From NCBI GenBank assembly GCA_964016885.1, contig OZ024740.1, positions 184,450,001 to 184,514,000 on the forward strand: a DNA stretch of 64,000 nucleotides. Reading direction: 5' to 3'. Positions 11,906 through 15,529 of this stretch are shown here, in pieces; the first letter of the stretch is position 1, and each line of letters opens with the position of its first letter. The notes under the pieces are model-generated. The model did not search any database. It was not told the origin of the DNA and was given only the letters and a program-made list of their open reading frames with translations. The translations under genes were made by a program, and so were the position numbers. This stretch comes from Eledone cirrhosa. Lineage: Eukaryota.

Positions 11906-14900
11906 CGAGGCATTTAGGAACAGTTTAGGTATGATACATTTTATTACTAATTATATCTAAATGTTTCTTCTCTCTTCATAATCTATTTTTAACTCTGATA
12001 CTGGTTCAGCCTGGTTCAAACTGAATTGGTCTGTCCCAGTCATTCATTGAGCAACATCGGTGAAGTTGGCACCCTTAACTCACAGTTGGGTGCGGATGCA
12101 TTCATGTATATATGTGTGTGTCCGCATGTATCTGTGTGTTTCTAAATGTATTAATAACTCCCTCTGGTCGAGCAATCTTTGAAGTGTGGGGACAACTGGA
12201 AAGCTTCCATTACTCATACTTCTCGCCTTCTTCACTACCTCTTCTGCGGCCTCGATATGAATGCCCCCTCCGCCTCCGTGGTATTTTTTTCGTGGTTATA
12301 GGAGGCTTAGCTCTGTTTCTCGACCGTTATATCGCGTGACTATCTCCCCCTCCGCCTTTTGGGATTCTTTCTCACGTCGTGTAGACGCGTTCTTGAGACT
12401 AGTAAAATGAGGTATCCTCTTGATAAGTCGGCAGACCTCGCAAGGACTCTATGTCTTTGATATATTGTTTTTGTTTATGCCACGAAACTACGTAGTCGAG
12501 GAATTTAGGAACAGTTTAGGTATGATACATTTTATTACTAATTATATCTAAATGTTTCTTCTCTCTTCATAATGTATTTTTAACTCTGATACTGGTTCAG
12601 TCTGGTTCAAACTGAATTGGTCTGTCCCAGTCATTCATTGAGCAACATCGGTGAAGTTGGCACCCTTAACTCACAGTTGGGTGCGGATGCATTCATGTAT
12701 ATATGTGTGTGTCCGCATGTATCTGTGTGTTTCTAAATGTATTAATAACTCCCTCTGGTCGAGCAATCTTTGAAGTGTGGGGACAACTGGAAAGCTTCCA
12801 TTACTCATACTTCTCGCCTTCTTCACTACCTCTTCTGCGGCCTCGATATGAATGCCCCCTCCGCCTCCGTGGTATTTTATTCGTGGTTATAGGAGGCTTA
12901 GCTCTGTTTCTCGACCGTTATATCGCGTGACTATCTCCCCCTCCGCCTTTTGGGATTCTTTCTCACGTCGTGTAGACGCGTTCTTGAGACTAGTAAAATG
13001 AGGTATCCTCTTGATAAGTCGGCAGACCTCGCAAGGACTCTATGTCTTTGATATATTGTTTTTGTTTATGCCACGAAACTACGTAGTCGAGGAATTTAGG
13101 AACAGTTTAGGTATGATACATTTTATTACTAATTATATCTAAATGTTTCTTCTCTCTTCATAATGTATTTTTAACTCTGATACTGGTTCAGTCTGGTTCA
13201 AACTGAATTGGTCTGTCCCAGTCATTCATTGAGCAACATCGGTGAAGTTGGCACCCTTAACTCACAGTTGGGTGCGGATGCATTCATGTATATATGTGTG
13301 TGTCCGCATGTATCTGTGTGTTTCTAAATGTATTAATAACTCCCTCTGGTCAAGCAATCTTTGAAGTGTGGGGACAACTGGAAAGCTTCCATTACTCATA
13401 CTTCTCGCCTTCTTCACTACCTCTTCTGCGGCCTCGATATGAATGCCCCCTCCGCCTCCGTGGTATTTTTTTCGTGGTTATAGGAGGCTTAGCTCTGTTT
13501 CTCGACCGTTATATCGCGTGACTATCTCCCCCTCCGCCTTTTGGGATTCTTTCTCACGTCGTGTAGACGCGTTCTTGAGACTAGTAAAATGAGGTATCCT
13601 CTTGATAAGTCGGCAGACCTCGCAAGGACTCTATGTCTTTGATATATTGTTTTTGTTTATGCCACGAAACTACGTAGTCGAGGAATTTAGGAACAGTTTA
13701 GGTATGATACATTTTATTACTAATTATATCTAAATGTTTCTTCTCTCTTCATAATGTATTTTTAACTCTGATACTGGTTCAGTCTGGTTCAAACTGAATT
13801 GGTCTGTCCCAGTCATTCATTGAGCAACATCGGTGAAGTTGGCACCCTTAACTCACAGTTGGGTGCGGATGCATTCATGTATATATGTGTGTGTCCGCAT
13901 GTATCTGTGTGTTTCTAAATGTATTAATAACTCCCTCTGGTCGAGCAATCTTTGAAGTGTGGGGACAACTGGAAAGCTTCCATTACTCATACTTCTCGCC
14001 TTCTTCACTACCTCTTCTGCGGCCTCGATATGAATGCCCCCTCCGCCTCCGTGGTATTTTTTTCGTGGTTATAGGAGGCTTAGCTCTGTTTCTCGACCGT
14101 TATATCGCGTGACTATCTCCCCCTCCGCCTTTTGGGATTCTTTCTCACGTCGTGTAGACGCGTTCTTGAGACTAGTAAAATGAGGTATCCTCTTGATAAG
14201 TCGGCAGACCTCGCAAGGACTCTATGTCTTTGATATATTGTTTTTGTTTATGCCACGAAACTACGTAGTCGAGGAATTTAGGAACAGTTTAGGTATGATA
14301 CATTTTATTACTAATTATATCTAAATGTTTCTTCTCTCTTCATAATGTATTTTTAACTCTGATACTGGTTCAGTCTGGTTCAAACTGAATTGGTCTGTCC
14401 CAGTCATTCATTGAGCAACATCGGTGAAGTTGGCACCCTTAACTCACAGTTGGGTGCGGATGCATTCATGTATATATGTGTGTGTCCGCATGTATCTGTG
14501 TGTTTCTAAATGTATTAATAACTCCCTCTGGTCGAGCAATCTTTGAAGTGTGGGGACAACTGGAAAGCTTCCATTACTCATACTTCTCGCCTTCTTCACT
14601 ACCTCTTCTGCGGCCTCGATATGAATGCCCCCTCCGCCTCCGTGGTATTTTTTTCGTGGTTATAGGAGGCTTAGCTCTGTTTCTCGACCGTTATATCGCG
14701 TGACTATCTCCCCCTCCGCCTTTTGGGATTCTTTCTCACGTCGTGTAGACGCGTTCTTGAGACTAGTAAAATGAGGTATCCTCTTGATAAGTCGGCAGAC
14801 CTCGCAAGGACTCTATGTCTTTGATATATTGTTTTTGTTTATGCCACGAAACTACGTAGTCGAGGAATTTAGGAACAGTTTAGGTATGATACATTTTATT

Positions 14901-15529
14901 ACTAATTATATCTAAATGTTTCTTCTCTCTTCATAATGTATTTTTAACTCTGATACTGGTTCAGTCTGGTTCAAACTGAATTGGTCTGTCCCAGTCATTC
15001 ATTGAGCAACATCGGTGAAGTTGGCACCCTTAACTCACAGTTGGGTGCGGATGCATTCATGTATATATGTGTGTGTCCGCATGTATCTGTGTGTTTCTAA
15101 ATGTATTAATAACTCCCTCTGGTCGAGCAATCTTTGAAGTGTGGGGACAACTGGAAAGCTTCCATTACTCATACTTCTCGCCTTCTTCACTACCTCTTCT
15201 GCGGCCTCGATATGAATGCCCCCTCCGCCTCCGTGGTATTTTTTTCGTGGTTATAGGAGGCTTAGCTCTGTTTCTCGACCGTTATATCGCGTGACTATCT
15301 CCCCCTCCGCCTTTTGGGATTCTTTCTCACGTCGTGTAGACGCGTTCTTGAGACTAGTAAAATGAGGTATCCTCTTGATAAGTCGGCAGACCTCGCAAGG
15401 ACTCTATGTCTTTGATATATTGTTTTTGTTTATGCCACGAAACTACGTAGTCGAGGAATTTAGGAACAGTTTAGGTATGATACATTTTATTACTAATTAT
15501 ATCTAAATGTTTCTTCTCTCTTCATAATG
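11906..15529 (+). repeat. Tandem array of 6.1 x 591 nt non-coding units, one hammerhead each (retrozyme-like multimer)
   Basis: Exact 591 period with only a handful of substitutions; hammerheads at 12416-12501, 13007-13092, 13598-13683, 14189-14274, 14780-14865, 15371-15456; (TA)n on both sides. Confidence 0.92.
12416..12501 (+). ncRNA. Type I hammerhead with U3-A8 variant core (representative of six array copies)
   Basis: CCTC-TTGATAA-GT(C)GGCA...TGCC-AC-GAAA-CTACGTAG-TC-GAGG; GUC cleavage triplet at 12495-12497. Confidence 0.82.

Follow-up and report, generated by a model that had tools for sequence, protein, structure and literature searches.

Six hammerhead units in a TA microsatellite of the cephalopod Eledone cirrhosa belong to a young retrozyme family with a Penelope-type twin-priming footprint

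The window analyzed here, a stretch of 64,000 nucleotides (nt) of the Eledone cirrhosa genome (GenBank assembly GCA_964016885.1, contig OZ024740.1, positions 184,450,001 to 184,514,000), contains a single-armed insertion of a repeated hammerhead unit at positions 11906-15530 on the + strand. Seven unit starts spaced 591 nt apart (11906, 12497, 13088, 13679, 14270, 14861 and 15452) mark out six units followed by a piece of 79 nt (15452-15530), in all 6.14 turns of the unit, beginning at hammerhead nucleotide C17 and ending at unit position ~81, which we call site A. The insertion lies in a target microsatellite, with (AT)97 at 11712-11905 on its 5' side and (TA)61.5 at 15532-15654 on its 3' side (strand not applicable to either). 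Measured against the array majority, unit 1 differs at three positions, units 2 and 3 at one each, and units 4-6 at none. The unit has a GC content of 42% and a longest stop-free frame of 86 amino acids (aa), and one strict pattern found no Pol III A and B boxes in it. The original prediction, made from the letters of this stretch, had described six near-identical non-coding 591-nt units within (TA)n, and the coordinates, the comparison with the majority, and the 86-aa maximal frame bear this out; the assembly has the stated six units, and the trailing piece matches 79 nt (to 15530) rather than the 78 nt first given. The array was also correctly said to start within 1-2 nt of the predicted cleavage bond: its first base, C11906, corresponds to hammerhead nucleotide C17 and lies one base 5' of the scissile bond, with T11905 common to the TA run.

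Each unit ends in one type I hammerhead motif, complete in all six and spaced 591 nt apart (12415-12502 for unit 1, then 13006-13093, 13597-13684, 14188-14275, 14779-14866 and 15370-15457, all +), with a helix I of UCCUC/GAGGA, the core UUGAUAA, a long helix II, GAAA, a palindromic helix III, and UC before the cut. The predicted cut is GTC^GAGGA, at 12497/12498 and each 591 nt onward. Because Rfam gave no match at the gathering score and no hammerhead model among seven matches at E<=10, the ribozyme call, on which we agree with the original prediction, rests on motif anatomy. This anatomy, with its U3-A8 core and long helix II, resembles the variant of Penelope hammerheads, in which U3-A8 replaces C3-G8, helix II is long, and helix III is palindromic and serves dimeric cleavage (PMC4209133; here and below, statements on published work refer to the accessible text of the papers cited). 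The active fold is predicted to be about 1 kcal/mol costlier than the free minimum (-21.5 versus -22.6), helix III is predicted to be stable solely as an intermolecular palindrome (-12.9 versus 0), and the monomer has a predicted folding z of -5.7 against 100 shuffles. The core heptamer TTGATAA is present in 391 of 396 scored copies, as counted with search patterns that favor intact cores, and is unchanged in a sister family described below.

Thousands of young copies of this non-coding hammerhead repeat, the array among them, are dispersed over TA microsatellites. The species' own 3.0-Gb genome matches a 22-mer from the hammerhead exactly at 7,502 places, sister family included. We examined 161 stretches, comprising the window array, the 39 best-scoring loci (biased to the window array's subfamily), 40 loci chosen by the hammerhead from the first 100 of the hammerhead matches listed, 40 chosen by site A and 40 by a second 3' end, site B (both sets taken as the loci follow one another on contig C1), and the other copy present in the window. 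The arrays are short, occur on most large contigs, and are 99% identical, and beyond the unit ends the stretches hold the family itself, a TA run, an inverted arm, or unrelated repeats. Satellite DNA grows and is homogenized in place as long arrays; this family instead has short, scattered arrays whose 3' ends are fixed and which may carry inverted arms. This supports the earlier view of a young dispersed family, inserted already multimeric, over that of an ordinary satellite.

Mapping of arms by BLAST against a multimer gave 267 pieces. For 253 of them the 3' end falls at site A (unit positions 72-86, mode 81) or at site B (238-254, mode 246); the other 14 end elsewhere. In the two sets not selected by their ends, 121 of 129 aligned pieces end at site A or B, and genome-wide the junctions number 2,546 at site A and 1,163 at exact site B, the site-B pattern missing the 247/248 variants. 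Both sites read ...AATRTAT into the TA run, each behind a long predicted hairpin. In unit 2 of the window array, hairpin 1 with start site A (unit position 81, ...AATGTAT into TA) occupies 12498-12577 (+) and hairpin 2 with start site B (unit position 246, ...AATRTAT into TA) occupies 12667-12742 (+); the 165 nt separating A from B correspond to the Penelope 'tail', which in PLEs spans the distance from one internal RT start site to the other (PMC11167929). Contigs of run X2, which may be of the assembled sample, have TA loose ends at 81 and 246 (12577 and 12742). A 621-nt contig of run X1, the size of a cyclic 591-nt path, was not used, as the kind of run is unrecorded and tandem DNA gives the same result.

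Where two arms lie head to head, they are one of each kind. All 89 pairs with both ends at A or B (88 independent, one segmental duplicate; pieces ending elsewhere were left out) combine A with B, an outcome with a probability of ~3e-27 if ends were drawn independently. Arm junctions show 0-5 nt of overlap in 59 of the 89 pairs and short filler in most others. In 19 of the 89 pairs each arm is longer than one unit; the longest arm measures 7.2 units, and most arms are shorter than two. Together with scattered 5' truncation, an inverted 5'-truncated copy, a microsatellite target, and a tail at one end, this is the twin-priming footprint of Penelope type. In L1 twin priming, both target ends likewise prime on one RNA and the inversion is joined by microhomology; there, however, each part derives from its own stretch of a single linear RNA, whereas the arms of this family overlap in sequence, can each exceed one unit, and begin at two fixed internal starts. 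The family is an animal retrozyme, and likely a non-autonomous passenger of Penelope-like elements (PLEs).

We then compared sequence variants among units, arms, and loci. Four A>G changes relative to the family majority (unit positions 341, 358, 396 and 548, at 12246, 12263, 12301 and 12453 on the + strand in unit 1) are present in all six units of the window array and may mark editing of the template RNA. The youngest subfamily, sampled at 45 loci, has 10 of the 16 allele combinations of these four sites, yet at positions 341, 358 and 396 mosaic multi-unit loci number 0 of 36, 36 and 38, compared to 20.5, 22.0 and 26.2 expected if units were independent. Across 80 callable arm pairs, the two arms of an insertion agree at 1,430 of the 1,447 polymorphic positions compared, against 18% discordance among re-paired arms (lowest 14% in 1,000 shuffles), and 12 of the 17 discordant sites fall in one locus, L151:398-2272, where the A and B arms of an inverted pair belong to different subfamilies. 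Of 58 unit-specific variants, only 2 were found at more than one locus, and daughters were therefore not copied from a few mixed master arrays. Private variants had spread to neighboring units in 10 partial cases, versus 260 private events. The simplest reading of these fixed haplotypes is that one monomer was read many times for both arms.

The 5' ends, in contrast, are largely random genome-wide, an outcome that the original prediction had held in advance to speak against itself; the fixed points of the family are the 3' ends at 81 and 246. Among 244 arms (identity at least 90%, length at least 20 nt, duplicate and sister-family scraps dropped), six start at positions 591-2, where 1.4 are expected (nominal p = 0.003), including those of L140 and L148 exactly at G1.1, while 403 passes run over the same point. 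Arm starts are more strongly concentrated at the 5' foot of each hairpin (28 versus 7.9 expected at 168-186, and 11 versus 3.9 at 10-17), and other 3-nt windows, at 177-181, are more enriched than the cut (up to 8.7-fold over expectation). Genome-wide, TA-abutting 5' ends are found at the cut in 7 loci, compared to 15 and 11 at two control positions that are favored by microhomology to TA. Reverse transcriptase (RT) thus nearly always reads through the junction, and the template should therefore have been circular or uncleaved. The start of the window array at the cut is mostly chance, perhaps with a small real pause. As a rule for the family, a start at the cleavage site is ruled out by the six of 244 arms, the 403 passes, and the lack of a genome-wide pile-up, and it loses the value that had been placed on it as a diagnostic of rolling-circle origin.

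Changes fixed within a locus are rich in A>G. In the youngest subfamily, A>G on the hammerhead strand makes up 10 of 15 locus-fixed sites, with one T>C, compared to 2 of 51 unit-private changes (p = 8e-7); without the four sampling-favored sites the locus-fixed count is 6 of 11 (p = 2e-4). Across 156 loci of the whole family, rare fixed changes are A>G in 21 of 76 cases and T>C in 11 of 76, and private changes are A>G in 25 of 260 and T>C in 36 of 260, in line with base content. Adenosine-to-inosine (A-to-I) editing of the template RNA may be the source of this bias, an explanation that we rate, from these substitution patterns, at about an even chance, with transcription-linked A>G mutation at source loci as an alternative. 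Editing is mentioned in PMC7229834 merely as a possible cause of RNA heterogeneity. If editing is responsible, the bias would mark single template molecules.

The window also contains an element of the type that may serve as helper. A young Hydra-clade PLE at 3758-8303 (- strand) has a 3,795-nt unit, its own hammerhead, and an inverted 138-nt arm; its RT frame (5914-7533, -) and endonuclease frame (5287-5898, -) are frameshifted in this copy. It was assigned to the Hydra clade by its RWK-like, DKT, CxCx5C linker, CxxC, and CxH motifs, judged by eye from translations set against PMC8557442, and by its hammerhead and (TA)n target. The family is young and abundant, with many intact 745-aa frames in the genome. 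Twenty-one copies inspected by eye comprise 15 two-armed copies with both ends readable, 3 single-armed, and 3 unresolved, and all 15 two-armed copies pair the element's own fixed ends, +57 and ~+143 past its cut. This makes it a candidate helper type; it shows the kind of helper, not the helper. Among the matches listed, the masked flanks of 80 stretches gave no homology between the unit and the pseudo-long terminal repeat (pLTR) of an autonomous PLE. A further piece of the Hydra-clade element's repeat seemingly lies at ~11400-11500, and PLE-like pieces and LINE-like RT and endonuclease frames, recognized by eye, lie at 16800-17285, 23214-24826, 40445-41218, 42869-45093 and 49170-50315; Pfam recognized 3 of 7 nearby PLE frames. 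At L145:418-2447, a site-A arm has its 5' end directly next to the RT frame of a different PLE family in the same orientation, as a template switch or a deletion could produce.

The second window copy of the retrozyme family, at 33209-34126 (+), is older and belongs to a 595-nt subfamily; it is 96% identical and has 1.5 units, a site-A end, and a 34-nt inverted piece at its 5' end. A sister retrozyme family (L240-L269, for example L256 and L267), which is older, 72-80% identical overall and has a unit of ~585-587 nt, keeps the same hammerhead core and two-armed layout. The search for a parent PLE, over the Hydra family of the window, the masked flanks and a relative at L094, found none; the relative turned out to be this older sister retrozyme (five loci inspected by eye, among the BLAST matches listed). 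Further hammerhead families, some with U3-A8, occur at L067:1928, L072:5687-5737, L079:8729, L086:3703, L044:4416, L149:2773, and other places, where they end 75-160 nt past their own cut in TA runs and cluster at the same microsatellites. At L082:2475-6328, one two-armed insertion is present twice, 2.55 kb apart, through local duplication or assembly.

We think it probable, with moderate confidence, that a Penelope-type RT, probably of the Hydra clade, copied one circular RNA monomer repeatedly into the TA microsatellite. The original prediction had read the array as rolling-circle cDNA of a 591-nt RNA, and of this the circular template survives as the best reading, while the run-off start at the cleavage site no longer counts as evidence. 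Tandem read-through transcripts would self-cleave, probably as hammerhead dimers via the palindromic helix III, and the cleaved RNA would be ligated to 591-nt circles, in which some adenosines may become inosine. A dimeric RT-endonuclease would cut both (TA)n strands, after which one DNA end would prime at A, 80 nt past the cut, and the other at B, 245 nt past it, both being AU-rich stretches behind long hairpins; the footprint of this step is visible in the insertions, and its chemistry is our proposal. Two-armed insertions would always be A+B because a monomeric circle holds one A and one B. Each RT would then circle with strand displacement, passing the junction ~98.5% of the time and stopping at scattered points, more often at the 5' feet of hairpins. 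The cDNA ends would be joined head to head via the 0-5 nt of microhomology or short filler seen at the arm junctions or, if a single arm extends, the arm would be joined to the TA run, as with the site-A arm in the window. A Poseidon PLE protein described in PMC11167929 cuts and extends both strands, uses two internal start sites, and is predicted to be a dimer. Self-cleavage, RNA circles, editing, and the partner enzyme are what we infer from genome sequence. The fuller scenario, in which a single 591-nt circle carrying its own A-to-I edits would be read simultaneously by both subunits of a Penelope RT dimer from two dedicated start modules, so that the edits enter all units in either arm as well as the germ line and each array preserves a single RNA molecule, is tentative, and we would place it on the doubtful side.

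Several observations weigh against this explanation or parts of it. Five rare transversions each occur in exactly one unit per inverted arm (L045, L056, two sites in L063, and L067), a pattern seen in no other locus of the first set and not predicted by a clean circle; they may reflect gene conversion, assembly phasing, or damage to a template base that was misread in some rounds of copying. The 591-nt unit has no significant similarity to the repeat of the Hydra-clade element (best E 0.09, one family tested). Against editing, the A>G sites show no ADAR-like neighbor or pairing preference, and their homoplasy excess is not significant (0.48 versus 0.42, p = 0.12). Eight of nine Xenopus retrozyme dimers showed no cleavage and one was cleaved (10.64898/2026.07.22.740005). 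The remaining points also favor twin priming on long uncleaved linear transcripts of homogeneous source arrays, in which an asymmetric protein dimer would enforce A+B and each haplotype would come from its source locus. In vitro, the Poseidon PLE worked mostly on uncleaved RNA and could do without its hammerhead (PMC11167929); in the 3.8-kb Hydra-clade element the same pairing rule goes with arms no longer than 1.45 units, for which a linear tandem precursor would also account; the two subfamilies at L151 suggest that the A+B rule can hold with two RNAs or that arms can be exchanged later; the rule itself may be set by the protein dimer rather than by the circle; and the circle itself is a reading of the genomic footprint. 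However, a copy of a linear transcript could not outgrow its source, yet arms as long as 7.2 units exist when most are below two; ten homogeneous haplotypes among 45 loci would need repeated single-unit bottlenecks, that is, a monomer step; and unit-specific variants are shared between loci in just the 2 of 58 cases. We regard linear templates as a serious but rather unlikely alternative.

The remaining explanations fare less well against the same data. Had cDNA run off the 5' end of self-cleaved RNA, insertions would start at the cleavage site, as the window array does to within 1 nt and as the excess of arms there (6 versus 1.4 expected, two exactly at G1.1) might suggest; but the 3-nt windows at 177-181 are more enriched, both control positions exceed the cut in loci, the window copy includes C17, 5' of the cut, and run-off explains at most ~1.5% of junction passes. 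We consider it very unlikely for the family and doubtful for the window locus taken alone. Short insertions slightly longer than one unit could instead have been expanded in place by unequal crossing-over or slippage, following the satellite model of 10.64898/2026.07.22.740005, where local amplification of retrozymes by unequal crossing-over is also proposed. Such expansion would likewise yield locus-fixed haplotypes, and units 4-6 are identical in the window; yet the arrays are short, dispersed, and 99% identical, both inverted arms are multi-unit in 19 pairs, the two arms of an insertion agree in haplotype, and private variants rarely reach neighboring units, making expansion highly improbable as the origin of the arrays. 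The original prediction had itself named a case that would undo it, in which the unit is no more than the pLTR belonging to a coding Penelope element, or assembly error produced the six copies. The PLE-type hammerhead, the footprint, and the L145 arm adjoining an RT frame would fit a pLTR, but only 1 of 75 single arms touches a PLE frame, the 72-80% identical sister family keeps the layout, and three units of the array carry private changes, so that we find this explanation barely tenable.

The family resembles metazoan non-LTR retrozymes (PMC7229834; 10.64898/2026.07.22.740005) in its non-coding tandem units with a type I hammerhead each, GC content below 50%, thousands of dispersed copies, a size within the reported 51-972 bp, and proposed PLE mobilization through circular RNA; the original prediction had noted that described monomers are mostly shorter, but a size of 591 nt is not unusual for an animal retrozyme. 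The family differs in its hammerhead of the PLE variant type and in features that the accessible text of these papers does not describe, namely two fixed 3' ends, obligate A+B arms, locus-fixed haplotypes, and an A>G bias; RNA circles are shown there, whereas this family is known from genome sequence. With Hydra-clade PLEs (PMC8557442) and Poseidon PAc (PMC11167929), it has in common (TA)n targeting, 5' truncation, an inverted 5'-truncated copy, a one-end tail, and two internal RT start sites ~80-90 nt or more past the hammerhead cut. Unlike them, as far as the accessible text goes, it has no open reading frame, a tail of 165 nt rather than 30-40, and many-unit arms, and its sequence showed no homology to that of the single Hydra family compared. 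MRC1 and other non-autonomous Chlamys elements (PMC8557442) are likewise PLE passengers with multicopy head-to-tail insertions, but they are green algal, mostly without hammerheads, and resemble their own autonomous families at the 3' end, a likeness not found for the window family in the comparisons made here. In the literature searched, with few subscription papers and with Repbase and supplements outside its scope, we found no account of this family, of a cephalopod retrozyme, of PLE twin priming, of obligate one-of-each arms, or of retrozyme editing marks; PMC6962438 does list 235 hammerheads for the giant squid, counted with Rfam.

Elements of this class are already known. What the window family adds are sharp numbers, in its one-of-each ends, common haplotype, and junction read-through, together with a 591-nt substrate for a direct test of the circle model. 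The origin of tandem and inverted PLE insertions, and the role of hammerhead circles as template, are stated as open in PMC8557442 and 10.64898/2026.07.22.740005. If the fuller scenario with its edited circle is true, the family would provide genomic proof of rolling-circle reverse transcription in PLE transposition, would bring the tandem, inverted, and tail structures of PLEs under one model, and would present RNA editing as a force driving the sequence evolution of a mobile element.

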